The notes beneath the pieces are model-generated. The model worked only from the letters and a program-made list of their open reading frames with translations. It was not told the origin of the DNA and ran no database searches. DNA of 64,000 bases from an uncultured bacterium (GTDB taxonomy: Bacteria; Bdellovibrionota; JACOXK01; 2-02-FULL-40-11), in assembly GCA_964371555.1 (NCBI GenBank), contig CAYJMQ010000002.1:5521-69520 (forward strand), read 5' to 3'. Positions 7,071-39,708 of this stretch are shown here, piece after piece (the first letter of the stretch is position 1; every line of letters begins with the position of its first letter). A program made the translations under genes and the position numbers.

Positions 7071-7071
7071 A

Positions 7072-24436: not shown

Positions 24437-25912
24437 GTGTGTTCCACTGATCTTCGAGTCACAAAAGCGCTAATCCCCGCCGCTGGGAGAGGGCTGAGAT
24501 CGTATCCTAAGAGCAAACATCTCCCCAAAGGGATGTTTGAAATCGAAAACAGACCGATTCTTGAGAACACGCTTATCCTGCTCAGGGATAAGATGAATAT
24601 TCGCGACATTTTTATGATCGTGGGGCATCAGAAAGAAAAAATAATAAATTATTTTAAAAATGGAGAGCGATGGGGGATCGATATTTCTTATATCGATTGC
24701 CCGGATCCTGAAGAAGGGATAGGGAGGGGGATTCTCTATGCTGAACAGTCGTTGCAAGAGCCTTTCATCTGCATTCTCGGTGATGAATATTACAGCCGTT
24801 CCAATCACGATCTTTGTCTGACATTACCGGATCAGATCTTTGCGGTCTGCGCGATTAAATATTCGAATGATATTAAATCAATAAAAAAAAATTATACAGT
24901 GGAGATCGGGGATGGTCTGATTCGGAAAATTATTGAAAAACCGGCTGTCAACCCGTCATCGCATTTAAGATATCTGGGATGCGGAACCTGGTTATTCAGA
25001 CCGGAAATTTTTGAGTGGATTAGAAAAACAGGGCATTCGGGGAGATCCGGAAAAGTCGAACTGATGGATGCCCTCGATCTGGCAATACAAAACGGGCGCC
25101 TGATCAAACCGTTTTATCTTGAGGGGGACTATTTCAATATCAATTCAATCGAAGACATCAACCAGTGCAATTATGTCGTTCGCTCGTCACACTTTTCTGA
25201 AAAAAGGATCAGTTTGATTATCCCTTCCCGCAATGAAGAGCAGACGATAGCGGCTGTCATTCAGGATGCCCTGCCGCATGTAGACGAAGTTATGGTAGTC
25301 GATAACCGATCGACCGATCAAACAGTGGAGGCAGCTCTTTCAGCGGGGGCGAGGGTAGAGAGAGTCAACCTCAAAGGGTATGGGGATACGATCCGACATG
25401 GTCTCGATCATGCCACTGGAGATATTCTGATTGTCATGGAGGCCGATTATTCATTTCGTGCAAAAGATTTGGGGAAGTTTCTCGAATATATTAAGGATGC
25501 TGATATGGTCATTGGAACCCGGACCACACGACAACTCATTGAACAAGGGGCCAACATGAATGGCTGGCTCCGGTTGGGGAATTTGATTGTTGCCAAACTG
25601 GTTGAGCTTTTATGGTGGGAGAGTGAGCCGCGTTTTACAGATGTCGGCTGTACTTACAGGGCAATCTGGAAAGAGGCGTATCAAAAAATCCGAAACGACC
25701 TCCATTCAACGGGACCGGAATTTTCGCTGGAAATGATGATAAAAATGTTAAAGTATAAACAACGGATCTTAGAGATTCCCATTTCGTATTATCCGCGTTT
25801 GGGAGGAATTTCAAAACACTCGAACCAGTGGTTTGGGATCTTTAAAACGGCGGCAAGAATGTTGCATCTTACCTTCATGGAAAGATTTTTTACAAGAGGA
25901 CGCCCGAGATGA
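24437..25912 (+). CDS. bifunctional sugar-phosphate nucleotidyltransferase / GT2 (Dpm1-like) fusion protein
   Basis: N-terminal ALIPAAGRGLR nucleotidyltransferase fold (~260 aa), then ISLIIPSRNEE...VVDNRSTD...MEADYSF GT2 domain. Confidence 0.7.
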   Translation: MCSTDLRVTKALIPAAGRGLRSYPKSKHLPKGMFEIENRPILENTLILLRDKMNIRDIFMIVGHQKEKIINYFKNGERWGIDISYIDCPDPEEGIGRGILYAEQSLQEPFICILGDEYYSRSNHDLCLTLPDQIFAVCAIKYSNDIKSIKKNYTVEIGDGLIRKIIEKPAVNPSSHLRYLGCGTWLFRPEIFEWIRKTGHSGRSGKVELMDALDLAIQNGRLIKPFYLEGDYFNINSIEDINQCNYVVRSSHFSEKRISLIIPSRNEEQTIAAVIQDALPHVDEVMVVDNRSTDQTVEAALSAGARVERVNLKGYGDTIRHGLDHATGDILIVMEADYSFRAKDLGKFLEYIKDADMVIGTRTTRQLIEQGANMNGWLRLGNLIVAKLVELLWWESEPRFTDVGCTYRAIWKEAYQKIRNDLHSTGPEFSLEMMIKMLKYKQRILEIPISYYPRLGGISKHSNQWFGIFKTAARMLHLTFMERFFTRGRPR

Positions 25913-27363
25913 GTTCCAAACTGAAAAAGGCTTTTTTGTGTTATTTGCCGATTGGCCGGTATCAGAGAGGGGAGGATCGTTGCCAGGCCGATATTGATGG
26001 ATCGACCACACAGGCCCCGCACGCGCCAAACGATTTGGGGTACATCGCCGCGCAATTGGAAAAATTCTCTGTAAAAAGTTTTATCAGGGATTATCCCGCT
26101 GAAGGATTATCTGAAGAACAGTTGATAGAAGATGTTAAAGCGTTTGAGCCGGACATTTTTTTTATCAGCACAACCTTTCCGACATTTGAAAAAGACGCCT
26201 TATTCTTAAAAAAAATAAAATCTTTAAAGCCGGACATCCTGACGATCGCAAAAGGGAGTTGCTTTTTTTCACTCCCGCTCAAAGATTTGAAAAATGAAAA
26301 TTACGCCTCTCTTGATATCGCAGTTTATGGGGAATCGGAGTTTATTATTGTAGATATTATCGAAAGCCTGCGGGGGGGAATGCCCCTTACAGATGTTTCC
26401 GGATTGCTTCTCTACATCGGGAGTCCGGAGGTTCGGCGCACCCCTCAGCCAGCTTTTGAGGAGAATCTCGATCTTCTTCCATTTCCAAAAAGAGAGTTGA
26501 TAAAGAATGAATTATATACCTGCCCCAATACGGGAAAGCCGATGGCAACGATTGTGGTATCAAGAGGGTGTCCTTTATCGTGTATATTTTGTCTGACTCC
26601 GATTATTTCCGGCCAAAAATTAAGAAAGCGTTCGGTCCAGAATGTGCTGGAGGAAGTAAAGGAGTGTGTCCATCATCATGGAATCAGCGATTTTTTTATG
26701 AGGGCTGATACATTTACCATGGATAGAGGATACGTAAAGGAATTCTGTCGGCAATTGCTTTCCGAACGTCTTTCTATTTCATGGGTTGCAAACAGTACGA
26801 CCACAGCGGCGCTCGACCGGGAAATGCTCGGTCTCATGAAAGCGGCCGGCTGCTGGCTTATCGCGTTTGGCATAGAGTCTGGCAATGAAGAGATCCAAAA
26901 AAGAATCAAACCCGGAATTCCGGTTGAAAACAGCTTTAAAGCTGTCCGACTCTGCAAGGATCTGGGAATTAAAACCTTCGGATTTTTTATGATAGGACTC
27001 CCCCACGATTCAAAATCAACGATGAACGACACTTTTCATCTTATGAAAGAGCTAGACTGCGATTTTATTGAGGTCCATATTGCCCTCCCTTATGACGGGA
27101 CCCCCTTAAATCGCTTGTCGAAAGAATTGGGGTTGCTTAAAGATTCTGTTCTCGGTCATAATTATTTTTCAATTCCCTATACCAGCGGTACTCTTCATCT
27201 GACAAGAAAAGAGATTATTCAGTTCAGAAAAAAAATGCTTGCGCACCATTATTTGCGTCCAACCTACATGTATCGAACGTTAAAGGGCTGCCGCTCCACG
27301 CACGAAGCGTTGAATTATCTCAAATATGGGACAAGGCTCCTTTATAATCTGGCTGTAAAATAG
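25909..27363 (+). CDS. B12-binding radical SAM protein (class B rSAM), copy 3
   Basis: Cobalamin-binding region (DIFFISTTFPT...ILTIAKGS), CPLSCIFC cluster, ELP3-like barrel. Confidence 0.8.
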   Translation: MSSKLKKAFLCYLPIGRYQRGEDRCQADIDGSTTQAPHAPNDLGYIAAQLEKFSVKSFIRDYPAEGLSEEQLIEDVKAFEPDIFFISTTFPTFEKDALFLKKIKSLKPDILTIAKGSCFFSLPLKDLKNENYASLDIAVYGESEFIIVDIIESLRGGMPLTDVSGLLLYIGSPEVRRTPQPAFEENLDLLPFPKRELIKNELYTCPNTGKPMATIVVSRGCPLSCIFCLTPIISGQKLRKRSVQNVLEEVKECVHHHGISDFFMRADTFTMDRGYVKEFCRQLLSERLSISWVANSTTTAALDREMLGLMKAAGCWLIAFGIESGNEEIQKRIKPGIPVENSFKAVRLCKDLGIKTFGFFMIGLPHDSKSTMNDTFHLMKELDCDFIEVHIALPYDGTPLNRLSKELGLLKDSVLGHNYFSIPYTSGTLHLTRKEIIQFRKKMLAHHYLRPTYMYRTLKGCRSTHEALNYLKYGTRLLYNLAVK

Positions 27364-28643
27364 GCTGCATGGTCGGTTTTCTTATGATGCAGTGTCTGTA
27401 CAAACCCGATGCCAAAAAAGAAGAGATAACAGGGGAGAAATAAGTCTCTATGACGAAAAGCGGCGCCAATGTTTCCTTCTGAAAGCGAAAATCCGACGAC
27501 AAAAATGAAAATCGTCAAAACAATCGGGAAAAAGAACCGTGCGTAGGAGGTTAATGAAAGGCAGACGCCTCTCAGAAGAAAAAAGCAACCAAGCAGCATG
27601 AAAAGGCTTTGAGGGTATGCCATCAGTTGGTTTTTTGATTGTATGTCCCATAAAAAGGGGGAAAAGAGGGCATAGGCAAGCCCTTTCAGTAGGATGAAGA
27701 GCCACGAAGAGAAAATGGGGCGATCTCCCGAAAAAAGCCCTTCTTGAATGGCATAAGGAGCGCCTGACCTGTCTATTACATGAGGGTACAAAAAGTAACC
27801 TGCGCTATCAGATAAGGCTACGTTCAACTGTTTGTCAACGAAAGGGTTCAGATGACGGTTTTTGACCAGAAAAGGGGTAATGGTAAACGCACCGACCAGA
27901 AGGGAGATGAAAAGCTTCTGCCGCCCTTCAAATGTTCTAAATAGGGCTACCAGTAGGGACAATAGAAGGAATAGTGAAAAAAAAACGGATTTATGGGCAA
28001 TGAAATACATCAGAAGTAAGGGAGGAGCCAGATAAAGTAATGGCCACTTCGGTTTTTCAAACAGAAGAAGGCAGATTCCAAGCAATACAACTACCAAGAG
28101 CAATAGGTAGGGCTCCTTAAATCCCCCCAACGAGTAATAAAAATAGCTTGGCCAAAATGAGAATAGTACTGAGACGAGTTTTGCTGTTTTTTTCCCAGAG
28201 AGCCTTAAACAGATAAAGTAAAAAATAATGGGGGTGAGGGATCCGACCAATATAGCAGTCATTTTTGTATAGATGATGGAAACCGAAAAAAAACAAAATA
28301 TGAAATAATGAAGAAAGGACAAGATGGTTAAAGGGTTCATGAATCCAAAGCCATAAGGGTCATTATAGTCGGGCAATATGAGGTAGAGTAAATTTACGTT
28401 TGTCGTGTTGCTAATGTCATAGAGTTCGAGTCCCTTATAAAAGTAAAGGGCTTCGTCGCTGGAAATAAAACCTTCCGCTCCGCGCTGTTGTGCCTGGTAA
28501 TAGAGATAACCCGCTATGACGAGGCGGGCAAGGAGCGAGAGAGAAAAAAGCATTATCAGAAATGGGGCATGATTCCCTCCTTTGAGATAAAGAGCGGTAA
28601 AGAGAATTAAAAGACAAATAAGAAAGAAAAGATAAAAAGTCAT
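27342..28643 (-). CDS. polytopic membrane protein (putative GT-C glycosyltransferase or polymerase)
   Basis: 433 aa, 10 or more hydrophobic helices; no soluble domain. Confidence 0.4.
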   Translation of the reverse strand: MTFYLFFLICLLILFTALYLKGGNHAPFLIMLFSLSLLARLVIAGYLYYQAQQRGAEGFISSDEALYFYKGLELYDISNTTNVNLLYLILPDYNDPYGFGFMNPLTILSFLHYFIFCFFSVSIIYTKMTAILVGSLTPIIFYFICLRLSGKKTAKLVSVLFSFWPSYFYYSLGGFKEPYLLLLVVVLLGICLLLFEKPKWPLLYLAPPLLLMYFIAHKSVFFSLFLLLSLLVALFRTFEGRQKLFISLLVGAFTITPFLVKNRHLNPFVDKQLNVALSDSAGYFLYPHVIDRSGAPYAIQEGLFSGDRPIFSSWLFILLKGLAYALFSPFLWDIQSKNQLMAYPQSLFMLLGCFFLLRGVCLSLTSYARFFFPIVLTIFIFVVGFSLSEGNIGAAFRHRDLFLPCYLFFFGIGFVQTLHHKKTDHAAYFTARL

Positions 28644-30202
28644 AATTTCAATCTCTTTCCATCATTAAAATTATTTCCAAAGACATCATAAAAATCGATC
28701 ATGAGCGTGCCTGCGACCGGCAGTGTAATTGTTTCTGGCGCCACATTCCGATATCCGGAAAGCTTTGTGACCGAAAAGATCATTCTACCTTCGGTCTGTC
28801 TCGGAGTCTCTACGGCGACATATGTCCCCTTTTTCATCTCGCCGGTGACAAGCCGAACCATTGAGATCAATCCCCAATCTTCGATTGCTTGGGCCCCATA
28901 GTAGGTATTTAAATAGTTCTCGCGTTTTCGGAGCCAACTATAATCGATTTGACGCGTAAAGCTTTCTATGTCGATTACAATATTCTTTGCCTGCATGAGC
29001 TTTTCTCTTTTTTCTATCAGCGTTTCATAGATAGCGCGGTTGAGCCGGCAAGCCACAACCTGCGTCCAGGCTCCCCCCTGGCATGTGATCATAAAAATGA
29101 TAAGCAGTGTCAAGAGAACCGGCTTTTGATACCTCTTCATCCGGCTAAAGACCCAGAGAAGAAACGAGCCTATACCGATAGAAGGTAAAACAAGATGCCT
29201 TGCCCCCACCCCACCCCAGGAATTAATGAGAATCGGTAAAGCAAAGGAAAAGAATATGATCACTGAAAGCGGAAGGAATCTGGCATCTATTTTTTTGAAA
29301 GAGCGATTTTTGATCGCTGCCATAAAGATCGCAATGGCAAGGAAATTCAAGAGAATGATGATCAAAAGCCATGGGCTTTCGATTGTGAAGAATTTGTAAA
29401 GACCATATAGGAGATTTCTTGCCATATAGCGCCCCGTGTAATGATGTGCGAGATCAACCAGATTGAAAGGGATCATTGAAAATGAGGGCGAGTGCGTATG
29501 AACGGGACTGAGAGCGCCCAAGCCAAAAACATTCGTAAGCTTAAATAAAAGGTAAAAAGCGGATGGAATAATAAAAAGGAGGGAGACTTTGAGCTTTTCC
29601 CTCTTGAAGAGAAAAACATAGCTTATGAGGATGATCGGTAAAAAGAAGCCGGGTTCATAGAAAAAGATCGCAAAAGAATATGAGGCGATTGAATACCAGA
29701 GGTATTTTCTTTTTTCGGATTGGGTATAATAAACGGTGAAAAGAAAGCTCAGGACATGAAAAATATTGGCAATGTCCATCACGGTGTAAACGGGAATATG
29801 GTACATCTCAAGCTTATTCGGAAGCAGACAAAAAATAATGGCGCCAACGACCGCTAAGAAGGAATCGTTCAAGAGCGCCTCTAATAATAGAAAAATAGCG
29901 ATGAGAAGAGCGGAGCTCAAAATTACCATCAACATGAATCCGATTTGCGGCTCGCCGTAAGAGAGTTTTTCCTGAAGCATCAGGAAAATAAAAGAGAGGG
30001 GACGGTCTGGCTGCCTCAAGGCATTGGAGAAGATCTCCTGATATGAGAGTTCATCTGCCTTTACCGATAAGGCGTAATCGTCGTTACCGATCGATGCGCG
30101 TTCAAATGGCAGAAAGTGCGCTAAAATATTGAGACAGATCAGAAAAACAAAAACCTTAGTTCTGTTAAACATTTTTTTGAGCGATGACCAGCATAATATC
30201 AA
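28640..30202 (-). CDS. polytopic membrane protein with C-terminal soluble domain (putative GT-C-like)
   Basis: 520 aa; N-terminal 370 aa multi-TM; C-terminal 150 aa soluble; translationally coupled to 27342..28643. Confidence 0.4.
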   Translation of the reverse strand: MILCWSSLKKMFNRTKVFVFLICLNILAHFLPFERASIGNDDYALSVKADELSYQEIFSNALRQPDRPLSFIFLMLQEKLSYGEPQIGFMLMVILSSALLIAIFLLLEALLNDSFLAVVGAIIFCLLPNKLEMYHIPVYTVMDIANIFHVLSFLFTVYYTQSEKRKYLWYSIASYSFAIFFYEPGFFLPIILISYVFLFKREKLKVSLLFIIPSAFYLLFKLTNVFGLGALSPVHTHSPSFSMIPFNLVDLAHHYTGRYMARNLLYGLYKFFTIESPWLLIIILLNFLAIAIFMAAIKNRSFKKIDARFLPLSVIIFFSFALPILINSWGGVGARHLVLPSIGIGSFLLWVFSRMKRYQKPVLLTLLIIFMITCQGGAWTQVVACRLNRAIYETLIEKREKLMQAKNIVIDIESFTRQIDYSWLRKRENYLNTYYGAQAIEDWGLISMVRLVTGEMKKGTYVAVETPRQTEGRMIFSVTKLSGYRNVAPETITLPVAGTLMIDFYDVFGNNFNDGKRLKL

Positions 30203-31058
30203 ATAGATTCATTTTTAAAGCGATTTTTGAAAAGCGGGACTGTGAAAAGCGTTGATACCAGGCCGAGGCAAATGACCATTTGTATGAAGTGATAAACCGA
30301 AAGAATAAGTAGTCGAGTGTCAAATGGAGACCGGGATAGCAGATCTCTTTTGCCGTAAAACCCCCTTGTTCCAGTAATTTTCGAATCGTATCTGTGTCGA
30401 AGTAGGAAAGATGCTGGGGAATATTATAGAGGTGCCATTTCCGTCCAGAAAGTCTGGCCACAAGGCTTCCGACATCGCCTGTTGTCAGTGCGACGATCCC
30501 TCCCGGTTTTACGATATTTCCGATCAATTTGATCGTTTTAACCGGCTGAGCAACATGCTCTATGACATCCCACATTGTGACAACATCAAATTGTGTTGTC
30601 AGATGTTTAAGTTCCTCTACCCCCCCTTCATAAACCTCGAATCCCTTTTGTCTTGCCATCTTTGCGGCGTATGCGGATATTTCAGAGCCGGATACATCCC
30701 AATATTTTGAGGCTGCTTCGAGAAATGTACCCGTTGCGCACCCCACATCGAGCAGGGAGCCCCCATCGCTGAATTTTCTGATCTGTTTGATTCTCTCAAG
30801 AAACGTGGCATGAAAGCTCTTCGATTCATTTTCGTAGTGACTGTACCCATGTTTTTTCCCGGTATCGTTGAAAAAATCCTCTGCGTAATACTCTTTTAAA
30901 AATGTGGGGGTAGGATCAAAATTTAAGAAAACAAGGTTGCACGCTTTGCAACGGCAAACTTCGTGTTGATCCTTTACAAAAAGAGGGATCAGTTGCCCGG
31001 TGGTATCAGATGAGCCGCAGAGTCTGCAAAAATCGAGTTTTTTAATGGTATTTTCCAA
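30165..31058 (-). CDS. class I SAM-dependent methyltransferase with N-terminal C4 zinc ribbon
   Basis: CRLCG...CRCKAC zinc ribbon; LDVGCATGTF motif I; DVVTMWDVIEH. Confidence 0.7.
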   Translation of the reverse strand: MENTIKKLDFCRLCGSSDTTGQLIPLFVKDQHEVCRCKACNLVFLNFDPTPTFLKEYYAEDFFNDTGKKHGYSHYENESKSFHATFLERIKQIRKFSDGGSLLDVGCATGTFLEAASKYWDVSGSEISAYAAKMARQKGFEVYEGGVEELKHLTTQFDVVTMWDVIEHVAQPVKTIKLIGNIVKPGGIVALTTGDVGSLVARLSGRKWHLYNIPQHLSYFDTDTIRKLLEQGGFTAKEICYPGLHLTLDYLFFRFITSYKWSFASAWYQRFSQSRFSKIALKMNLFDIMLVIAQKNV

Positions 31059-31791
31059 GATAGTAGTTCAATTTTATTTTTATTAAATCACGAAACGATC
31101 CAAAGGTATCGACAACGGGAGAGACTTTACTCCCCTCCATATGATACCACCGGACTGGCAATTCAAAGGTTTTATAATTGAAAAGCTTTGCCAGGAAAAG
31201 AATCTCTGAATCATAAGACCAGCGTTCAACCGCTGCCCGCTTAAACAAATTTTTCGCAACAGGCGTCCGAAATCCTTTGAAGCCGCAGGTAATATCTGTA
31301 AACCGGAGCCCCAGGAAAAAATTTGTCATCATCGTGAAGCCCTTGCCTAAAATTCTTCTTGGAATTCTTTGTTTGACCATCGTTTGTGTCAGCAGATGTT
31401 TTTTGGTTCCGACAACAATGTCGTATGAGTCGAGTAAGGCGAGGCATCTTTCGATTTCATCCAAATGAATTGAAAAATCGGCATCCATGACGATTACTTT
31501 GTCCCCTCCTGCCTGCAGGATCCCTTGTTTTACAGCGCAGCCCTTTCCCCGGTTGGGTTGATAACTTACGATTTTAACAGACGGCTGGAGCAGATTTTTT
31601 TTAAATTCTTCCAGAATATTCAATGTTTGGTCGGTCGATCCGTCATTGACAAAGACGATCTCAGCGCGCTCCGGGAGTTTTTTTTGAATATGTGTCTGAA
31701 ACGAGGAGAGATTTGGTTTAAGGCGCTTTGCCTCATTGAAACAGGGGATGACAATACTCAATTCATCTCTTTCAAGAGGGGCCATACTCAT
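31042..31791 (-). CDS. GT2 glycosyltransferase (dolichyl/polyprenyl-phosphate beta-glucosyltransferase-like)
   Basis: LSIVIPCFNEAKR...VFVNDGSTDQT...MDADFS motifs. Confidence 0.75.
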   Translation of the reverse strand: MSMAPLERDELSIVIPCFNEAKRLKPNLSSFQTHIQKKLPERAEIVFVNDGSTDQTLNILEEFKKNLLQPSVKIVSYQPNRGKGCAVKQGILQAGGDKVIVMDADFSIHLDEIERCLALLDSYDIVVGTKKHLLTQTMVKQRIPRRILGKGFTMMTNFFLGLRFTDITCGFKGFRTPVAKNLFKRAAVERWSYDSEILFLAKLFNYKTFELPVRWYHMEGSKVSPVVDTFGSFRDLIKIKLNYYLGKYH

Positions 31792-31860
31792 TAAACGGCT
31801 ATCTTAAAGAGAAACGCATGGCAAGATTAAATTAGACTTGCATGATATCCAAAGAGCCTT

Positions 31861-32643
31861 CTATGTTGGAAGGGATCCTTCTTTGTTCGCGTGATTTCTC
31901 AAGGGGCTGATCGGTTGGGGAAAGGGGGGGGAAAGAGGGGGAGAAAGGGGAGGGCGCAAACCGTGATCCGGCATACCGAGTTCCTGAAAGCCGATCGTAT
32001 ATTTTGAATTCTTCGTTACGCGGAAGGGAAAAAAGTTCATGACGTTCGCAGCCGATATATCATGATGCCGGGCATATTTTAGCTCGATGACGGTGTCATA
32101 GCATTTAGCCCAATGAAACATTTGTTGGGATAATTTAAATATTCTTGCGGTTATTAATTCTGAATCAACCGTCAAACGAAATTGTCTATCAAAAGATTGA
32201 TAATATTTTCGTTTGTAGCGATTGACCAAAACTGGCATGAGAAGTTCCATGAGATTTTTTGTTGTCAGGCCGATTTCGGATTCTAGAATAGTCTCTTTTA
32301 GAATGTCAGCCATCTTATCATCTTTAAGGAAAGAAAAGGGCTTCAAATCATATTGTTTCTTAACTGTCAGAGAATTCTTTTTTATTTTGAGTTCCAATAC
32401 GGGTTTTGAAATATCACCCCACAATTGGCCATACCAACGAACCCGGATCTTTTGGCGATAGGGATGCCCCTCAATGGAATCTCGATAACACTCACTGTCA
32501 TGGGTGTCAAAATAGATATTGTTAATATATCGTTCATGATAGATTTCAGAAAATGCCAGTGGATGTAGTCGGATCAGTAATTCTATTTGGGGACGTGTTA
32601 ACTCTTTTGTAACAAATTTATTCTCGTATCGTATGTCACTCAT
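31861..32643 (-). CDS. VTC domain protein (CYTH-like, polyphosphate-polymerase-like) with Pro-rich C-terminal tail
   Basis: N-terminal RYENKF (ExK), NIYFDT and KIRVRWYG motifs characteristic of the VTC domain; PPLSPPLSPPFPQP tail encoded over a G8 tract (31924-31931). Confidence 0.6.
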   Translation of the reverse strand: MSDIRYENKFVTKELTRPQIELLIRLHPLAFSEIYHERYINNIYFDTHDSECYRDSIEGHPYRQKIRVRWYGQLWGDISKPVLELKIKKNSLTVKKQYDLKPFSFLKDDKMADILKETILESEIGLTTKNLMELLMPVLVNRYKRKYYQSFDRQFRLTVDSELITARIFKLSQQMFHWAKCYDTVIELKYARHHDISAANVMNFFPFRVTKNSKYTIGFQELGMPDHGLRPPLSPPLSPPFPQPISPLRNHANKEGSLPT

Positions 32644-35254
32644 TTGCGTACAATAATTTCTTTATGTTGCTCTGTTTTTCATTTAGGGGAATCTCTTTGC
32701 CATTCAATGTCAGAGAGGAATCATTCTCAACGAGATGGTTTCGCACAACATTGTTTATTGTAAGTTTGTTACACTCCATCGATGCTGGCCCAAATTCAGG
32801 TTTTTTGCGGAAGACAGCTATGCCAATCTCACTGTTTTTAATAGAACTATCAAATAGAGAGACTCGGCTTAAATCCTTGCTCGCTATCCCTATTTTTGAG
32901 CTTTCTATTTCAATATGTCTGGCTTGAACAAGGCTATTTTCACCCGCACTGATCCCTTTATCCCGGATATGCGACATAAAAAGCCGATCTAATTCGATCA
33001 CACTTCCAGAAAAATCGAGGGCATCCCCACCGATGTTTGTAAACATTGTATCTATAATTTCCCCTTTAGTGAAATCCCCATCCACTGCGTCGCTCAAGAT
33101 ATTGCTAAATAGGGATGAATGGATTTTAAATTCCGAGCGAAAGATATTCAGGTAATCATCCCCCTTTTTATTATTCAGAAATTTTGTGTGATAAATTTCA
33201 ACCGGGGATTCGTAAAACGTAATGGCCCCGGTTAAGATCCAATTCTTTTCAGAGGGAGCATTTAAACCATGAAAGACGAGATGTTTTAGTATCGATTTTT
33301 CACGGGCTTTTAAAACCACAAGCCCCTCACCTGTAAAATCAGATGAATGAATCGAAATCGGTTCTTGAACAGAACCCAAAAAATAGAGGGGTGAATAAGA
33401 AATAATTTTTGCTCTCTTCCTTAAGTCAATTTTTGTTCCGGGAAAGCAATAAACGGTATATCCAGGCGGTATAATAAGGGGATGATTGAGGTTCCAAGAT
33501 CCCTGTCGAATCAGGATTTCCTTTTTGGAATCATTCATCGTCATAAAAGGGACCGTATGGCTGTTGGGGTCTTGACGAAGTAGATCGCTGCTCACATCAA
33601 CAAGAGCTTCTTGCCGTTGGGGCGAGATCGGCGCAATTTTCTCTTCTTTTCCACCCAACATTTTGTATGCCAGTTTAAAGTGATCGATGTTTTTATCTAA
33701 AGTCGCTTTTGGATGCTCTTGGGGATAGAACGTGAAGTTATGAAATTCGAGAGGTTGCGCTTCTTTTTTTGGATCTAAAATGATTCTTGTTTTTGGTGTG
33801 AGTTTTAAGGAGCCTTTATAGAGGAGATGGGATATTTCGACCGGCAGGGCTTGAATATTGGCGACCTCTAAAATGAGATGGTTATCATCAATTCCTCTCT
33901 CATATGCCAAAAGCCCGTTCAAGGGGTTCAGTAATTGTTTGATAAACGCTTGATTTGCATAGAGGTACTTCGTTGTATAGTGGAAATAGGGGAAATCTTT
34001 ATAGAGGATGGAAAGTTTTTTCTGTAACTCTGCATTCAAATCCTTAAGAAGACGATCTAAGTATTCCTTTTCAGAAATTCGATATAGTTCTGATAAATAT
34101 TTTTCCAACAAAATCGGATTGCTAAAAATGCGACGATGATGCTCTTTTGAAATATAACTATCACGATTTTCCAAATAGTGAATGGTTTGAATATAAAAAC
34201 CCCTCCCCTTATCGAAAGCAATCGGTTCTAGCTTGGAAGTGATTGGGTTGTAATAAAATCGTAGATTTGGCCACCCCAATGCATGTGATCCATCCATAAG
34301 ATCGCTGATGGCATAAAAAGTAGCCAGTTTATCTACGTCGATCAATTTGTGAACTGCAAGAGCGCCATTTCGAAATTCATTTAAGAGGGCTTTAGCCTGA
34401 ATCATTTCTGAGGCGGGGGTATTTTTCTTATCATAATCTAAAATGGGCGCCGACATAATATATTCATCAAAAAGTCTATTGGCGGCGTCAGGGATGCGGT
34501 TCGAACTGTAGCGAGCTCCAAAATAAGTATCAAAAAAAAGATTTTCATCGAAACGTACAATAGCGCCTGTACGTCGGGCATTGCTCTCAATCGTCAATTT
34601 ATCAAAATGTTCTTCTAGTGCATAAATGCCCAGTGTTTTTCCATTTAAAATAACTTTAACAAAATCATATCTCAATGCTGCGATGCCCTCCCTCTTTAGG
34701 GCCTCATGATAGATCCATTCATAGATATAATTTCGTGTCTTTGGGTGTTGGAGAGAAATTTTTTTCATTCCTCTCCATGTTTCGTTTCCTTTGATCTTTA
34801 CACGAAATGACCACCGATCTCCTTGCCAATGATCTGACAGATCCCCTTTGAGTCGCAGTTCTATATTGTAGGTCTTATCGTTGTAACGGAGTTTGGCATT
34901 TACAAAGTCATCGTCTTTGCTGTCAAGTTGGCCTGTCTTTAACGCAATATCCCGTTTTTTTTCCAATTTTTGATAATTTACAAAACTGATATCAATATAA
35001 ATCGTTTTAACATCTGCAAATAACCCCCTTAGAAAATTAAGGGGGACCTTTATATTTTCCAAAAAGAGGGGTTTTAACACATCACTTGTTGATCCCAGTT
35101 TTGTTGAAAATACCCCCAAGATATAAGAGACTAGAAACCCACCCACAACAAAGACAAGGATGAGAAACCGTCGAATCTTTTGTATGTATTTCCAGCCAGA
35201 GAAGATAGTCTTGCGCCAGAATAGATAATCAGGGGGCTCATTTTTGAGGAGCAT
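32636..35254 (-). CDS. CotH family atypical protein kinase with C-terminal parallel beta-helix-like region
   Basis: AKLRYNDKTYNIELRLKG...SFRVKIKG...LNGKTLGIYALEEHFD matches the CotH (PF08757) core; N-terminal TM anchor; C-terminal ~350 aa repeat-rich. Confidence 0.7.
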   Translation of the reverse strand: MLLKNEPPDYLFWRKTIFSGWKYIQKIRRFLILVFVVGGFLVSYILGVFSTKLGSTSDVLKPLFLENIKVPLNFLRGLFADVKTIYIDISFVNYQKLEKKRDIALKTGQLDSKDDDFVNAKLRYNDKTYNIELRLKGDLSDHWQGDRWSFRVKIKGNETWRGMKKISLQHPKTRNYIYEWIYHEALKREGIAALRYDFVKVILNGKTLGIYALEEHFDKLTIESNARRTGAIVRFDENLFFDTYFGARYSSNRIPDAANRLFDEYIMSAPILDYDKKNTPASEMIQAKALLNEFRNGALAVHKLIDVDKLATFYAISDLMDGSHALGWPNLRFYYNPITSKLEPIAFDKGRGFYIQTIHYLENRDSYISKEHHRRIFSNPILLEKYLSELYRISEKEYLDRLLKDLNAELQKKLSILYKDFPYFHYTTKYLYANQAFIKQLLNPLNGLLAYERGIDDNHLILEVANIQALPVEISHLLYKGSLKLTPKTRIILDPKKEAQPLEFHNFTFYPQEHPKATLDKNIDHFKLAYKMLGGKEEKIAPISPQRQEALVDVSSDLLRQDPNSHTVPFMTMNDSKKEILIRQGSWNLNHPLIIPPGYTVYCFPGTKIDLRKRAKIISYSPLYFLGSVQEPISIHSSDFTGEGLVVLKAREKSILKHLVFHGLNAPSEKNWILTGAITFYESPVEIYHTKFLNNKKGDDYLNIFRSEFKIHSSLFSNILSDAVDGDFTKGEIIDTMFTNIGGDALDFSGSVIELDRLFMSHIRDKGISAGENSLVQARHIEIESSKIGIASKDLSRVSLFDSSIKNSEIGIAVFRKKPEFGPASMECNKLTINNVVRNHLVENDSSLTLNGKEIPLNEKQSNIKKLLYANE

Positions 35255-35256
35255 TT

Positions 35257-35943
35257 TTAGAAAATACCTTTGTTATCTAAAAAGGTGAATCTAAGGGAGG
35301 TGTCCAACGTCTGAAGGGATTTTTTGGTTTCTTCAATTTTTTGAGGATCATTAAACTCAACGAGGAACGAGGCATCGATTGTGCGATTGTTCTCATCGAA
35401 ACGTTTTAAATTGACGGTTGTGCAGTGTTTTTTGAGGATGAAGATGATTTGACTGAGTGTGACATCTGTTTGAGAGGGGCTCGAAACGGTTAAGAAGAGA
35501 TTCTGAGAATCAAATGACTGTGAATAGAGATTTTTTATATAAATGACGGCAACAATAAAAAGAAAAGCAACAAGGGTGATCGTTCTTTGGCCAGCTCCCA
35601 ATCCAAGTCCAATAGCTATGGCCAAAAAAAGATAAGAAAGCTCTTCGGGTTCCTTGATTGCCGCACGGAATCTCACAATAGAAAGGGCTCCAACCAGACC
35701 GAGCGATAGAGCCAAGGATGATTTAACGATCATAATGACCACAAGTGTTGTCAGCGTGATCAGCACAAAATTGCTTGCAAAGAATCTCCTGTTAGAGAGC
35801 GAACGACCATATTTGGTATAGATGATGGCCAATGTATAGGCCAATATCGCAGCAAGGGACAGATTAATCAAGAAATCAGGAAGTGAAAGGGCGCTGGATC
35901 CTGCAGCTTCTGATTGAATGAGAGAGTCAATTTTTGGATTCAT
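35257..35943 (-). CDS. DUF4956-like membrane protein (partner of VTC/CotH)
   Basis: Three or four TM helices and a soluble C-terminal domain; gene order and 2-nt spacing with the CotH gene. Confidence 0.45.
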   Translation of the reverse strand: MNPKIDSLIQSEAAGSSALSLPDFLINLSLAAILAYTLAIIYTKYGRSLSNRRFFASNFVLITLTTLVVIMIVKSSLALSLGLVGALSIVRFRAAIKEPEELSYLFLAIAIGLGLGAGQRTITLVAFLFIVAVIYIKNLYSQSFDSQNLFLTVSSPSQTDVTLSQIIFILKKHCTTVNLKRFDENNRTIDASFLVEFNDPQKIEETKKSLQTLDTSLRFTFLDNKGIF

Positions 35944-36028
35944 TTCTATTAAATGCAGAGAAATCCTATTTTAAAAGATACTGGGAGTCAATGCTAACTT
36001 ATTTTATGGGCCTAGATGGGAGCGTCCG

Positions 36029-36478
36029 CTATCTGTCCACCCGTTCCCAGCGGTAGGGGACACTATCGCCGTATGGGGGATAGCGTTTCATCTCTTTCGG
36101 GTCGTGTGGAAAGTTTGCGCAGTTTGCGACAATGGCAGTCTCCCTCCCGATGACCTTGTAGCCATTGATCACTCCAGGCGGGATCCGGGTGAGCTGATAA
36201 TTGTTTTCACCGGTAAAAATTTCCATGAGAGTTTTGTATGTTTTGGAATCGGCCCTGTTGTCATAGAGCACAAGTTTAATCATCCCTTTTATCACGGCAT
36301 AAAATTGGGTCTGATAGGTATGTTCGTGCCATCCCTTGATGACGCCCGGATAGGCGGTCGAAAAATATATTTCCCCAAACTTTTCGAAATGGGGGTCGTT
36401 TGCGCGAAGCATGTGCAGGATGCTCCCCCTCTCATCGCAAATCCTTTTAAGCGGAACAATCAGGACGTCTTGAATCAT
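36029..36478 (-). CDS. cupin-fold sugar-nucleotide isomerase/epimerase (WxcM-like, FdtA/QdtA or RmlC-like)
   Basis: 149 aa; GSILHMLRANDP...GEIYFSTAYPGVIKGWHEH...RIPPGVINGY pattern typical of TDP-4-keto-6-deoxysugar 3,4-ketoisomerases. Confidence 0.6.
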   Translation of the reverse strand: MIQDVLIVPLKRICDERGSILHMLRANDPHFEKFGEIYFSTAYPGVIKGWHEHTYQTQFYAVIKGMIKLVLYDNRADSKTYKTLMEIFTGENNYQLTRIPPGVINGYKVIGRETAIVANCANFPHDPKEMKRYPPYGDSVPYRWERVDR

Positions 36479-37512
36479 GGTTTTATCCAGAAATAATCTG
36501 AATCCAGTTTCTTATCCCGGATGAGGGATTGAATTTTTTTTGTCCGAAAATATCGATCCGATTTAAAAGTGTTCATTGTGAGATCATATTTTTGATAGGC
36601 ATCAATCAACTCCCTAATCCCCTGTTTCAGATTCCATTGTGGCTCAAATTCGCTGAACGATTGACGAATTTTTGTGAAATCAACCCGGTATGTCCGCTCA
36701 TCCTTCTCATTTTCATTGAGAATTTTTAAGCGGGTTCCAGGCAGCTCTCTCTGGATTTGAACAGCAATGTCTTTAATTTGATAATTTTCATTGTTGAATC
36801 CCACATTAAATGTCTGATTGTCAATTTTTTCGATGGGCGCCTTTAGCACCGTTAAAAACGCCCTGCAAAAATCTGCAATATGAATCAGCGGTCTCCAGGG
36901 GGTGCCATCGCTTTTGACGACAATTTCTCCGGTCAAAAGCGCCATTGCGACAAGTTGGTTCACAACCAGATCGAGCCGAAGTCTTGGGGAAACGCCATAG
37001 ACGGTGGCGTTTCGAAGGAGCGTCGGATGAAAATCGCAAGTGGCAAGCTGGCTTAAAGCGCCTTCCGCGGCGACCTTGCTCTTTGCGTAAGCGGTCTGGG
37101 GATTGAGGGCGTCGTTTTCTGTCAAAAAATCGCCGCGCGATGCAATTCCATATAAACTGCAGGAGGAGGCAAAAATGAATCTTTTAATTTTTAGTTCCCT
37201 GCAATAAGAGGCAAGTCTCAGCGTTGCTTTATAATTGATCTCATTTGTCAATGCCTCATTCATTTCTCCAAGCGGATCATTTGACAGGGCTGACAGATGG
37301 ATAACAGCTTGGACTCCATCAAGATCTTTTGCGTCGATATGACGAATATCTTTCTTGATCTGCCTGTCTGGCTTCGATTGAGCATCGGTCTTAAAAAAAA
37401 CGGATTCCTGAAAAAAACCGGTATCGAGTCCAATGACTTCATACGATGCCTTTTTCAGGATTTTTGTCATGACGGTTCCAATATATCCGAGATTGCCGGT
37501 TAAGAGGATCAT
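36475..37512 (-). CDS. NAD-dependent epimerase/dehydratase family protein
   Basis: ILLTGNLGYIGT Rossmann, YAKSKVAAE (YxxxK). Confidence 0.75.
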   Translation of the reverse strand: MILLTGNLGYIGTVMTKILKKASYEVIGLDTGFFQESVFFKTDAQSKPDRQIKKDIRHIDAKDLDGVQAVIHLSALSNDPLGEMNEALTNEINYKATLRLASYCRELKIKRFIFASSCSLYGIASRGDFLTENDALNPQTAYAKSKVAAEGALSQLATCDFHPTLLRNATVYGVSPRLRLDLVVNQLVAMALLTGEIVVKSDGTPWRPLIHIADFCRAFLTVLKAPIEKIDNQTFNVGFNNENYQIKDIAVQIQRELPGTRLKILNENEKDERTYRVDFTKIRQSFSEFEPQWNLKQGIRELIDAYQKYDLTMNTFKSDRYFRTKKIQSLIRDKKLDSDYFWIKP

Positions 37513-38594
37513 CCCTTTCTCCCTCCTGCATTTTTAAAAAGTGTTACAAATTTGGGTGCCTGAACTTTGAGTGAATAGAATTGCTCAACCGTTTTTCTTC
37601 CTGCCTCGGCCATCCGATTTCTCAGATCGGGCGAAGAGAGTAAAAGGGAGAGTTTTTCTATCCATTCTTCCTTACGCTTTACGAGAAAACCGTTGTGGCC
37701 GTTCCGGATGATTTCCCTGTTTCTACCGATATCGGAAGCGACGCAAACGGCATGCGCGGACATATACTGAACCGGCTTAAATCCGGTTTTTCCTTTCACC
37801 CATTCGTTGTCAGGAAGGGGATAGACGCCGATATCGAGACTTTGAAATTCCCCGATTTCATCTTCCAGTCTCCATTCAGGTTGATCGAGATCGACGTTCA
37901 AGAGCGCTATTTTCTTTGGCGCGCCGACAATTTTTAAAACAAAATCGTGGTTTTTAGAAAGCGTCGGAAAGAGATCCAAAATTTCTTCAAGATATGGAAA
38001 TGTCGTGTGGCTCCCAATCCATCCAATAACCGGCTTTTGACGCGGCCTGCTCTCTCTTTTTTGATAGAGAGAGGTATCAACAGAGGTGGGAATAATCGTT
38101 ATATTTTGGGGATCCTGAAATCCTGAGGCGTAATTTTTTAAATAGTCATTACAGACAATGGTGTGAGAACTCATCGACGCAAGCCTCGCGATTTTCCTGT
38201 CGGATTTAAAGATTTTTCGAATGAAAGAAACCGATCCCTCTTTCTTCATAAAAATCGCGTCATCGAGGTCGTAAATCAGCGGCTTCTTTAGAAATCTTGC
38301 GAGACGCTCAAGGAGAAGAATGGGGAAAGGGGAAGATTCAAGATGAACGCAAATGATGTCGTACCTTGGAAGATTGATGAGATCGAGGAGCCTTCTTGCA
38401 ATCGCCCCCCCAAGGTAGAATATCTTCTTTGCCAAATACCCTTTTTTGTAAACGATCTTATAGAATCGCGAAGAAATAAATGAGCTGACTTTATAATCTA
38501 TATTCTCTTTTTTGAGATAGGGTAGAAATTGATGAATCCGGTATCTGTAGCTTGCGCCTTCAATTGGATATGGAACGAGAAAAAGAACCCGCAT
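37509..38594 (-). CDS. GT4 family glycosyltransferase (GT-B)
   Basis: The C-terminal region (MSAHAVCVASDIGRNREIIRNGHNGFLV) is the GT4 EX7E region; translationally coupled to its neighbours. Confidence 0.7.
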   Translation of the reverse strand: MRVLFLVPYPIEGASYRYRIHQFLPYLKKENIDYKVSSFISSRFYKIVYKKGYLAKKIFYLGGAIARRLLDLINLPRYDIICVHLESSPFPILLLERLARFLKKPLIYDLDDAIFMKKEGSVSFIRKIFKSDRKIARLASMSSHTIVCNDYLKNYASGFQDPQNITIIPTSVDTSLYQKRESRPRQKPVIGWIGSHTTFPYLEEILDLFPTLSKNHDFVLKIVGAPKKIALLNVDLDQPEWRLEDEIGEFQSLDIGVYPLPDNEWVKGKTGFKPVQYMSAHAVCVASDIGRNREIIRNGHNGFLVKRKEEWIEKLSLLLSSPDLRNRMAEAGRKTVEQFYSLKVQAPKFVTLFKNAGGRKG

Positions 38595-38601
38595 AACAAA
38601 A

Positions 38602-39708
38602 CTATTTGTTCATGGTTAATGAATTACGGTCATCTGTCAAGTATCTGAATGTTCTTACGCAGGCCTCGAGATGATGAACCGAGTTGGAATAAAATCGATT
38701 TTTGAAGCACTTCAGGCGATAGAGCGGTTCCCTAAGATTGCACCATTGATGTTTGTAAAATCGCTGATAGCCATACCAGTTATAGTAGCTATCGCCATGT
38801 TCATCGATCTCCCGAATGATCTCTTCAATTAATAAATATCCGGGTCTCAGATGTTTAAAGCGATAATTAAAGGCGGTCAGCGCCCAGTGAAATCCCTTTC
38901 CAAAGCGATAGGCAAAACTTACGGCCAATATTTCATTCCCGGCTTTCAAAATATGGGCATCCAATCTCTGATTTTTTTCCATGATTTTCAAAAAATCTTT
39001 AAAAAAACTTACATATCTTGAATCGAGAAAAGCGCTTTTCTTCCCCCTGTTGTGAAAAGATTCTTGTGATAGGCGGACATATACTTCGAAATATTTCTCT
39101 ATCTCTTTTTCACCGGAGATTCGGATCAGAATAGGGGCCCCTAATTCCCTTGTCGCGCGTCTTCTTCGTGATCGTAAATCGCGTTTCAGTTTTCCTGGAA
39201 TTGTGCTCAAATACGCCTCTCTCCCCTGTTCCAAACCGATCGCCCAGTTGTCATGGTCGTGAATTGCCCGAACTACCATCTGGTTATCATCAAACGTTTT
39301 TAAATTGTAAGACATTAAGGGATGAGAGTGGCGAACATCTTTTAAATAGAGCAGATCGACATCGCCTCGAAGTCCAATCGTTTTAAAGAATAGAGATGGC
39401 GAAACCGATTTGGAAAGGCACGGTTCCGTGTAGTTTGCGGCCCCATCTCCAATGTAAGCCAGTGTGCGAAGAAACCCATATCGAAAAGAGCGTTTCCCCA
39501 TGTAGAGAGGGATCCCCCCCTGAATCCGGTTGTCTTCAGAAAAAATGAGAAACCGAAATGACAGGCCTGTCTGGTAATATTTCCAGCACGTCAAAATAAA
39601 ATCCGACAACAAAAATGGATTATAGACATTCTCTTGAATTAAAAATTTATCCCACGACGATGCAATCTCTTCAAATTGTCTGGGATTCTCTAACCAGATA
39701 GATTCCAT
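38602..39708 (-). CDS. FemAB/CelD-like GNAT acyltransferase (Acetyltransf_6 family), paralog 1
   Basis: 368 aa; architecture and motifs (ANYTEP, LRPGYLLIEEIIRE) shared with the paralog at 42371..43504. Confidence 0.55.
   Translation of the reverse strand: MESIWLENPRQFEEIASSWDKFLIQENVYNPFLLSDFILTCWKYYQTGLSFRFLIFSEDNRIQGGIPLYMGKRSFRYGFLRTLAYIGDGAANYTEPCLSKSVSPSLFFKTIGLRGDVDLLYLKDVRHSHPLMSYNLKTFDDNQMVVRAIHDHDNWAIGLEQGREAYLSTIPGKLKRDLRSRRRRATRELGAPILIRISGEKEIEKYFEVYVRLSQESFHNRGKKSAFLDSRYVSFFKDFLKIMEKNQRLDAHILKAGNEILAVSFAYRFGKGFHWALTAFNYRFKHLRPGYLLIEEIIREIDEHGDSYYNWYGYQRFYKHQWCNLREPLYRLKCFKNRFYSNSVHHLEACVRTFRYLTDDRNSLTMNK

Follow-up and report, generated by a model that had tools for sequence, protein, structure and literature searches.

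The 64,000-nt stretch of DNA analysed here (the window), from an uncultured bacterium of the Bdellovibrionota, contains three consecutive minus-strand genes that code for a small membrane protein of the DUF4956 family, a large protein combining a CotH kinase fold with a beta-helix, and a protein with the VTC domain of polyphosphate polymerases. The locus raises the question why these three proteins should be encoded together, within a region for glycan biosynthesis, and what substrate might be open to a kinase fold whose predicted site is outside the cytoplasm. The trio was found to be a cassette shared by bacteria and archaea, which, as judged from sequence and predicted structure, probably brings phosphate chemistry to surface sugars. 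The genes and their junctions, the latter read directly from the sequence, are as follows:

35257-35943, minus strand: DUF4956 membrane protein gene (open reading frame (ORF) of 228 aa)
32636-35254, minus strand: CotH-beta-helix protein gene, whole (ORF of 872 aa)
31861-32643, minus strand: VTC-domain protein gene (ORF of 260 aa)
35254..35259, minus strand: DUF4956/CotH junction TAA-aa-ATG, with a gap of 2 nt
32636..32643, minus strand: CotH/VTC junction ATGAGTGA, with an overlap of 8 nt

The initial annotation of this DNA had assigned the proteins to the families CotH (PF08757), VTC (PF09359) and DUF4956 (PF16316). These accessions are correct in Pfam, and in a profile hidden Markov model search all three proteins exceeded the Pfam gathering scores. 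PF16316 was matched by the 228-aa protein with E=2.1e-17 (63.8 bits against a gathering score of 30.6), PF08757 by residues 133-411 of the 872-aa protein with E=3.7e-9 (37 bits against 23.8), and PF09359 by the 260-aa protein with E=3.4e-28 (99.2 bits against 23), over positions 2-232 of the 235 in the profile. A scan of the triad proteins against NCBIfam gave no match for any of the three. The positions, strand and consecutive order given in the annotation are exactly those of the ORFs. The start codon of the VTC gene falls within the 3' end of the CotH gene, and both junctions are compatible with the translational coupling that had been proposed. Promoter and terminator scans at the triad gave no useful excess over the expectation from shuffled sequence.

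Relatives of the CotH protein were sought by a pattern scan in which each GTDB species was represented by one genome; the window's own genome was not among the matches. The CotH-beta-helix subfamily was identified in at least 377 species-representative genomes, both bacterial and archaeal. Bacterial carriers belong to KSB1, Omnitrophota, Planctomycetota, Chloroflexota, Acidobacteriota, Gemmatimonadota, Myxococcota, Clostridia, Spirochaetales, Nitrosomonas and the candidate phyla radiation (CPR), and archaeal carriers to Methanosarcina, Methanolobus, Methanogenium and DPANN. For the analysis of synteny, 64 loci from different species with at least 900 bp on either side of the CotH gene were sampled, and their six-frame ORFs were searched with the partner proteins of the window. 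Both partners were present on the same strand as CotH at 58 of the 64 loci, with the compact order DUF4956-CotH-VTC at 44, an additional gene of about 1 kb inserted between CotH and VTC at 7, and another arrangement at a further 7. Two loci contained the DUF4956 partner alone. The recorded gene calls of Methanosarcina sp. Mfa9 and of an Anaerolineaceae genome confirmed the order, with glycan genes adjoining. The gene-neighbourhood check across genomes that had been suggested with the initial annotation thus revealed a co-occurrence far beyond chance, and the trio can be regarded, as had been claimed, as a conserved but uncharacterised module, one which has also been described beside Pel loci.

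Counted from the VTC side, at 24 loci on metagenome contigs with enough upstream sequence, the gene directly upstream of VTC was CotH in 17 cases, only DUF4956 in 6, and neither of them in one. Pairs of DUF4956 and VTC genes without CotH, in either order, are common in metagenome contigs. Two such stand-alone pairs, at the loci L089 (5267-6684) and L100 (5279-6669), have flanks of more than 5 kb without a CotH gene. Since the pairs persist without CotH, DUF4956 and VTC appear to be the core unit and CotH a frequent third partner. The pair at L089 lies about 1.2 kb from a gene for a secreted lamin-tail-domain protein with a Por_Secre_tail domain, with one ORF of 193 aa in between. The pair at L100 is located between a cation-efflux gene and an mraW/PBP/MurE cluster.

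The wider surroundings of the cassette vary. When 131 genes from the flanks of the cassette at 39 loci were assigned to Pfam families, 118 different families were counted, showing that the flanks are not conserved. By raw counts the commonest families were GT2 glycosyltransferases (5), Wzx-type flippases (5), sugar epimerases (4) and methyltransferases (4), followed by Wzy, GT4 and radical S-adenosylmethionine (SAM) proteins (3 each), which points to glycan assembly. Pel families and DUF4832 were absent from the top families of these 131 genes. Because the wider neighbourhood is not conserved, the trio is best described as a self-contained cassette in varied contexts. The link to a surface glycan that had been drawn from the position of the genes is supported in a general sense: the likeness of the beta-helix to glycan-active enzymes, the predicted extracytoplasmic site and the frequency of glycan neighbours speak for it.

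Some cassettes contain additional genes. Nine ORFs inside variant cassettes were scanned, and seven of them, at six loci, code for a calcineurin-like metallophosphoesterase; the other two gave no family. The loci are:

Variant cassettes with an extra metallophosphoesterase: L005 (12624-15419), L022 (13305-14171), L025, L041, L043 and L055

The metallophosphoesterase of L022 carries the twin-arginine signal SRREFLQLGAVAG, and that of L055 has a signal peptide and a C-terminal anchor. These export signals indicate that the variant cassettes handle phosphate esters or phospho-anhydrides outside the cytoplasm. In yeast, Ppn2, a member of the calcineurin-like metallophosphoesterase superfamily, is an endopolyphosphatase. 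At L005 an alginate-lyase-like gene was also found within the cassette, and at L022 the DUF4956-VTC pair is duplicated.

What each of the three proteins might contribute was derived from their sequences and predicted structures. For the VTC protein, two parts were distinguished:

31978..32643, minus strand: VTC/triphosphate-tunnel domain, aa 1-222 (Pfam PF09359 and the A3 profile)
31864..31977, minus strand: proline-rich C-terminal tail PPLSPPLSPPFPQPISP, aa 223-260, a non-conserved repeat tail

The protein is a single-domain protein which has neither a signal peptide nor a transmembrane (TM) segment nor an SPX domain. Most of its homologs lack the proline-rich tail of 38 residues, being typically about 232 aa long and covering about 85% of the query. 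The A3 profile, built from 28 homologs, matched the tunnel-domain structures of yeast Vtc2 (E=5.7e-6) and Vtc4 (E=4.8e-5). By counting in the printed alignments, K9, R67, R69, K86, R145 and R156 of the window protein were equated with K200, R264, R266, K281, R361 and R373 of Vtc4, respectively, and all six are invariant across the 28 homologs. In Vtc4 these six residues reportedly line and activate the polymerase tunnel, a finding attributed to Hothorn et al. in 2009. Hence, the earlier description as a CYTH-like protein of the polyphosphate polymerase type was right as to the VTC family, but the tunnel of Vtc4 is a closer relative than a generic CYTH domain. A HMMER scan of the VTC profile over 1.84 billion cluster representatives, clustered at 50% identity, detected 8,008 VTC-domain proteins at E<=1e-3 and 1,630 at E<=1e-30; the best 150 representatives are all 219-277 aa long. 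Stand-alone VTC domains thus form a large family in prokaryotes.

The DUF4956 protein is the most conserved of the triad, with 55-66% identity across phyla. It contains five predicted TM helices (aa 21-144) and a C-terminal domain (aa 147-223) with the order beta-alpha-beta-beta-alpha-beta, which is ACT/ferredoxin-like. PF16316 was matched by all 30 homologs, and the core VKSSLALSLG.VGALSIVRFR.AIK.PEEL is invariant. From the charges of the loops, the basic segments SLSNR(R/K) and RFRxAIK and the ACT-like domain are predicted to face the cytoplasm. Matches to MgtC (PF02308) remained below threshold throughout: the window protein reached 10.9 bits against a gathering score of 31.4, and 26 of the 30 family members gave weak but consistent matches over the TM region, the best with E=2e-3. 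In agreement with these matches, some homologs have been named 'YhiD-like' by the Joint Genome Institute (JGI). By sequence, DUF4956 would be a distant relative of MgtC at most.

For the CotH-beta-helix protein, an AlphaFold (AF2) model was obtained from 26 homologs with a predicted local distance difference test score (pLDDT) of 83 and a predicted template modelling score (pTM) of 0.74. The following parts were recognised:

35105..35176, minus strand: N-terminal membrane anchor, about aa 27-50, a hydrophobic helix within model helix 9-52, predicted N-in/C-out
33920..35005, minus strand: CotH kinase-fold domain, about aa 84-445 (aa 84-442 in the AF2 model; profile against 5JD9, hhalign, conservation)
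33620..33913, minus strand: beta-sandwich linker domain, aa 448-545 (AF2 secondary structure)
32690..33544, minus strand: right-handed parallel beta-helix, aa 571-855 (AF2 model, Foldseek)

Both the membrane anchor and the C-terminal beta-helix of the initial annotation are thus present in the model. Among 82 homologs, the 20 residues before the anchor contain on average 5.5 lysines and arginines and those after it 2.6, with more before than after in 90% of the proteins. The positive-inside rule thus predicts an extracytoplasmic location for the CotH domain and the beta-helix. Full-length homologs numbered more than 500, with identities of 37-45%. All 26 aligned homologs matched PF08757, and the beta-helix part matched PF12708 in 18 and PF13229 in 14 of them. 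The beta-sandwich is poorly conserved, with just 3 positions at 85% or above. Foldseek related the CotH part to B. cereus CotH (5JDA; E=1.5e-12, target-normalised TM-score 0.66), and the C-terminal part to a GH87 alpha-1,3-glucanase, polygalacturonases, the alginate epimerase AlgG, PL6 lyases and phage tailspike depolymerases. Along the beta-helix runs a conserved line of Asp, Lys and Glu residues, approximately one per turn (D722/D725/D727, D744/D747, D765/K766/E772, K793/D794, K817/K818/E820 and E843). The predicted beta-helix is, on this pattern, a putative binding groove or active site rather than a passive stalk.

The CotH domain was compared with the Bacillus proteins. CotH of B. subtilis is a proven protein kinase, in which D251 is the metal-binding Asp and D228 the catalytic Asp; the D228Q variant is inactive (PMC7821199). 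D247 and D224 of B. cereus CotH were equated with D251 and D228 via the spacing of 23 residues. The A1 profile matched residues 25-348 of 5JD9 with E=1.2e-6, and hhalign aligned the CotH domain with the CotH structure at a probability of 94%. Both HMMER and hhalign agree in placing D348 at the position of D247, N330 at that of the catalytic-loop Asn and His324 at that of D224. Among the 82 homologs, H324 and D348 are each conserved in 79, N330 in 75, and K136, E214 and E215 each in 81; R151, N336 and E343 are conserved as well. D318, located six residues before H324, is Asp or Glu in 75 of the 82. No part of the 872-aa protein is better conserved than the CotH domain, in which more than 40 positions reach 85% or above; this conservation implies that the domain is under strong selection and has kept its metal site. 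The designation as a CotH kinase consequently holds for the Pfam family, the fold and the metal-binding Asp, and fails for the catalytic Asp, in place of which His324 is found. By its sequence, His324 could reflect a different catalytic strategy or a phospho-His intermediate, or D318 could serve as a substitute.

The gene trio itself is already in the literature. In streptococci, clostridia and bifidobacteria, pelDEADAFG is accompanied by contiguous accessory genes, namely cotH, a 'poly-phosphate polymerase', DUF4956 and DUF4832 (Whitfield et al. 2020, PMC7112168). In S. intermedius, aggregation in sputum medium fell by more than 50% when either the CotH or the DUF4956 gene was deleted (PMC12345266). 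The authors of that study did not find the synteny outside Pel loci and discussed a role in phosphate metabolism; MgtC is summarised there as regulating the F-ATPase and phosphate homeostasis. As in the window, the Pel modules have the same three Pfam families contiguous beside exopolysaccharide genes, the CotH protein is exported, and DUF4956 was described with an MgtC-like TM domain and an intracellular ACT domain. By description, however, the streptococcal CotH is a secreted protein with FN3 domains, whereas that of the window is anchored by a TM helix and fused to a beta-helix. The gene order is DUF4956-CotH-VTC in the window and CotH-VTC-DUF4956 in S. intermedius (SIR_1594-1593-1592). Moreover, the trio of the window is not contiguous with pelDEADAFG or DUF4832, its host is apparently Gram-negative, and its subfamily extends to archaea and CPR bacteria. 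A Pel locus was rejected for the window, since a scan of 40 of its ORFs detected no Pel-specific family and no DUF4832. What is new is a distinct subfamily, beta-helix-fused, membrane-anchored and with His324, which occurs outside Pel loci in both prokaryotic domains.

A further arrangement of this kind is NELoc-2 of C. perfringens, which consists of genes for VTC, a 'tubulin/FtsZ-like' membrane protein, CotH and a chitin-synthase-like glycosyltransferase (PMC2879425). Here, VTC genes are likewise paired with genes for membrane proteins of about 225 aa, near CotH and a processive glycosyltransferase; we infer that the 226-aa membrane proteins are DUF4956. NELoc-2 differs in that the VTC-membrane pair is duplicated around a resolvase and that CotH has 497 aa with no beta-helix reported. 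Yeast VTC, which combines the catalytic tunnel domain of Vtc4 with a TM channel of Vtc1/2/3/4 (3G3Q, 7YTJ, 8I6V), shares with the window protein the homologous tunnel domain, with profile E-values of about 1e-5 to 1e-6 and the six residues, and the coupling of a catalytic domain to an oligo-TM partner, which in the window is a genetic coupling. In contrast to the yeast subunits, which are fused to an SPX domain and a C-terminal TM domain, the VTC domain of the window makes up a soluble protein of its own, of about 230 aa. Its membrane partner DUF4956 has no discernible similarity to the TM subunits of yeast VTC, and a CotH partner is unknown for eukaryotic VTC. With the Bacillus CotH proteins (5JD9/5JDA) the window protein shares the Pfam family, the fold, D348 (D251 in B. 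subtilis, D247 in B. cereus) and the catalytic-loop Asn, N330. It differs from them in the near-invariant His324 at the place of D228, in the membrane anchor, in about 420 additional C-terminal residues, in the lack of a link to sporulation and in its occurrence in archaea. DUF4956 resembles the MgtC/YhiD/SapB proteins (PF02308) in its approximately five TM helices and C-terminal ACT-like domain, but has a distinct core motif, and MgtC is not known as the partner of a polymerase. Among secretory-pathway enzymes, the xylose kinase Fam20B and POMK, whose folds are protein-kinase-like, phosphorylate glycans on the non-cytosolic side of membranes. They use ATP imported into the lumen, and the likeness to the CotH protein of the window is drawn as an analogy at the level of the general fold. 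The stalk protein Sfz6 of Zetaproteobacteria was considered as a relative and set aside; it contains a CotH domain and has no link to VTC. Literature searches for DUF4956, prokaryotic VTC and exported CotH yielded no functional study beyond the Pel papers.

Taken together, the reading favoured here, held tentatively, is that of a self-contained three-gene cassette for envelope phosphorylation, in which polyphosphate synthesis in the cytoplasm would feed a glycan phosphotransferase outside it. The steps were deduced from homology, topology and co-inheritance. The VTC protein would dock on a DUF4956 oligomer at the inner face of the membrane and make polyphosphate, or a short phospho-anhydride donor, from nucleoside triphosphates. 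DUF4956 would pass the polyphosphate across the membrane, with the invariant basic loop RFRxAIK on the cytoplasmic side as the putative entry point. Outside, the groove of the beta-helix would hold a surface or periplasmic glycan chain, and the CotH-beta-helix enzyme would transfer phosphate or polyphosphate to it, His324 possibly serving as the base or as the phospho-enzyme intermediate. A polyphosphate donor would allow an enzyme with a kinase fold to work in a compartment without ATP. In the window, the likely target would be the product of the surrounding locus of GT2, GT-C-like and methyltransferase genes. Such a mechanism would explain the presence of a kinase fold where ATP is absent, the joint travel of the three genes across very different envelopes, and both the stand-alone DUF4956-VTC pair and the exported phosphoesterases that join the cassette. 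The pairing of DUF4956 with VTC would parallel the catalytic-plus-membrane organisation of yeast VTC, for which the chains of 7YTJ and 8I6V were matched. The altered Pel level and aggregation of the S. intermedius CotH and DUF4956 deletions (PMC12345266) are also counted in favour of the envelope phosphorylation cassette. It is doubtful that the system is a prokaryotic VTC-type polyphosphate synthase-translocase, in which a soluble tunnel enzyme on an MgtC-like DUF4956 pore would feed an extracytoplasmic, His-based CotH enzyme; polyphosphate would replace ATP as its phosphoryl donor, and surface glycans would be phosphorylated or receive polyphosphate.

Several points weigh against the proposed mechanism. 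To our knowledge, proteins of the MgtC family are not known as channels, and we know of no CotH or other kinase-fold enzyme that depends on polyphosphate. The near-invariant His324 replaces the canonical catalytic Asp in two alignments, and the CotH domain could be non-catalytic or do different chemistry. The alignment of the VTC protein to Vtc4 by HMMER stops short of the region of E426, S457 and K458, for which the invariant E187-x-K189 and S213-K214 are plausible candidate equivalents. Neither by profile nor by fold was a match found between DUF4956 and the TM subunits of yeast VTC; as a homologous counterpart of the yeast membrane channel DUF4956 was therefore rejected, and it is an analogy at best. 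At four of the 64 loci the CotH-beta-helix gene was present without either partner. Furthermore, the deletions of CotH and DUF4956 in S. intermedius shift Pel levels in opposite directions, and no phenotype was reported for the VTC deletion (PMC12345266). In the literature, no biochemical data were found for prokaryotic VTC-domain proteins or for the CotH subfamily of the window.

Much of the same evidence can be read differently. DUF4956 and VTC might make and export a surface polyphosphate, which the CotH-beta-helix protein would bind, anchor or size at the envelope by means of its conserved Asp/Lys line, perhaps with the help of divalent cations, without any phosphorylation of a glycan. The pair standing alone beside cell-wall or transport genes without CotH, the loss of the catalytic Asp and the exported metallophosphoesterases of the variant cassettes are in line with this explanation, and the acidic and basic residues found once per turn of the beta-helix would be appropriate for binding a linear polyanion through bridging metal ions. 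However, more than 40 positions of the CotH domain, including the metal-binding Asp and the catalytic-loop Asn, are conserved at 85% or above, which argues for catalysis; the nearest structural relatives of the beta-helix are glycan-active enzymes, and glycan genes are frequent in the flanks. Surface polyphosphate as the product is considered unlikely. That the cassette is a regulatory or hydrolytic module is judged distinctly unlikely. VTC would then be a tri- or polyphosphatase of the CYTH type and the ACT-like domain of DUF4956 a ligand sensor, both tuning the CotH-beta-helix protein, which would itself be a glycan lyase, epimerase or hydrolase with a degenerate CotH domain as a binding module. 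For the triphosphate tunnel metalloenzyme (TTM) superfamily, many reactions including hydrolysis have been described (PMC4641920, PMC9582702). Ligand sensing is a typical role of ACT-like folds; the beta-helix, with its conserved Asp clusters, is similar to lyases, epimerases and hydrolases, and an alginate-lyase-like gene lies inside the cassette of L005. Yet the protein matches the VTC polymerase family (PF09359, Vtc2/Vtc4) rather than generic CYTH proteins and keeps the tunnel residues of Vtc4, and the CotH domain is more conserved than any other part of the large protein.

A conventional ATP-dependent Ser/Thr protein kinase like that of Bacillus spores, here for envelope proteins or glycoproteins, with VTC and DUF4956 adjusting the phosphate or energy status like MgtC, would conform with the CotH family and fold, with the proven activity of B. 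subtilis CotH (PMC7821199), with the distant similarity of DUF4956 to MgtC and with the role in phosphate metabolism discussed for S. intermedius (PMC12345266). This appears quite improbable, however: the predicted location outside the cytoplasm has no ATP, His replaces the catalytic Asp that is required in B. subtilis, the fused beta-helix points to a polymer substrate, and a merely regulatory link would not account for three genes so strictly coupled as an operon in bacteria, CPR, DPANN and methanogens alike. The chance that the genes are merely adjacent by accident, or decaying without a joint function, is negligible and effectively refuted by the co-occurrence at 58 of 64 and 17 of 24 loci; the ORFs are intact, the junctions are coupled, the same order is found at 44 of the 64 species loci in two domains of life, motifs are strongly conserved in all three proteins, and nothing was found in its favour.

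How the cassette came to be so widespread can be addressed from its distribution and composition. Archaeal and bacterial CotH sequences are interleaved, with a mean identity of 0.39 between archaea and bacteria, 0.41 within bacteria and 0.45 within archaea. In the window, the GC content at third codon positions (GC3) is 0.38-0.42 for the triad and 0.44-0.60 for its neighbours, and among the 4-kb segments of the 64 kb, the one that deviates most in tetranucleotide composition (z=3.4) lies in the triad. The patchy, interleaved distribution across domains, together with the deviant composition, would suggest that the cassette has spread horizontally. Copies were found neither on plasmids, by tblastn, nor in the viral contigs of IMG/VR, so that a plasmid or phage vehicle was rejected. 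The CotH-beta-helix protein of an Ignavibacteriales metagenome-assembled genome (MAG; locus L029) is 73-76% identical to those of the Methanosarcinales loci L028, L032 and L033 (75-76% for Methanosarcina), against a family average of about 40%, which reflects either a recent inter-domain transfer or a binning error. Binning errors in MAGs could inflate some of the taxonomic jumps; complete genomes and genomes of isolates of methanogens also carry the cassette.

In the window, the triad belongs to a run of 13 minus-strand genes (27342-39708) and is surrounded by a glycan-biosynthesis region that extends between about 1.7 kb and 44 kb of the window. This region contains GT2, GT4 and PMT_2-type glycosyltransferases, sugar epimerases and dehydratases, nucleotidyltransferases, GNAT/FemAB-like proteins and radical SAM enzymes, so that the glycan locus of the initial annotation was found as described. 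The genes next to the cassette are:

27342..31791, minus strand, downstream: a small GT2 glycosyltransferase like GtrB/DPM1, a SAM methyltransferase and two polytopic membrane proteins
36029..39708, minus strand, upstream: an RmlC/WxcM-like cupin, an NAD-dependent sugar epimerase, a GT4 glycosyltransferase and a FemAB/GNAT-like acyltransferase

As candidate partners, the downstream products might act on the same envelope glycan; they represent context, not a part of the conserved cassette, and the upstream genes also lie outside it. The WxcM/RmlC-like cupin gene just upstream of the triad (36029-36478, minus strand) has a GC3 of 0.60, with 0.38-0.50 in its neighbours. The two polytopic membrane proteins (433 and 520 aa; 27342-30202, minus strand) are encoded by overlapping genes directly downstream of those for the GT2 enzyme and the methyltransferase. 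They gave no Pfam match even at E<=0.1 and may be unclassified glycosyltransferases of the GT-C type or polymerases.

Further genes of the glycan locus are located on the plus strand. Three radical SAM enzymes (5193-6212, 17852-19603 and 25909-27363), two of them with B12-binding domains, suggest an unusual C-methylation of sugars or another radical modification. A 563-aa fusion of an HMGL-like aldolase with an MptE-like domain (DUF115/Maf-type; 9750-11441) lies beside GT2 and nucleotidyltransferase genes, and a sugar-nucleotidyltransferase and a GT2 domain are fused in one ORF of 491 aa (24437-25912). Two ORFs of 534 and 591 aa (6961-8565 and 19625-21400) gave only weak, sub-threshold matches to DUF6716, a putative glycosyltransferase family. 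At 47011-48555 on the minus strand, a PilQ-like ORF of 514 aa contains STN and Secretin_N domains and stops directly behind the latter, with no C-terminal secretin domain detected. Since aroC begins 7 nt downstream, there is no room for the missing domain, and the ORF could represent a truncated or split secretin or an unusual outer-membrane component of a pilus.

Polyphosphate synthesis in prokaryotes has been attributed to PPK1 and PPK2, and VTC has been treated as a eukaryotic enzyme (PMC12526157). Stand-alone VTC proteins of about 230 aa, however, form at least 1,630 clusters at 50% identity, and no biochemical study of them was found in the literature. Whatever the mechanism, the data correct the published statement that the synteny is limited to Pel loci. 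How a kinase fold can act outside the membrane without ATP is a general question for exported CotH proteins, be they cellulosomal, streptococcal or on fungal surfaces. The cassette offers a compact system of three proteins for its study, with K9, R67/R69, H324 and D348 as targets for point mutants and with genetically tractable or cultured carriers, including isolates of Methanosarcina and Methanogenium. If the proposed function is true, the cassette would represent a new class of surface-glycan modification, with a bearing on the charge of biofilm matrices, on recognition by phages and the immune system, and on mineral binding. If, in addition, polyphosphate is the donor, it would be a new way to energise phosphorylation outside the cytoplasm, one that would have spread horizontally across bacteria, CPR, DPANN and methanogens.

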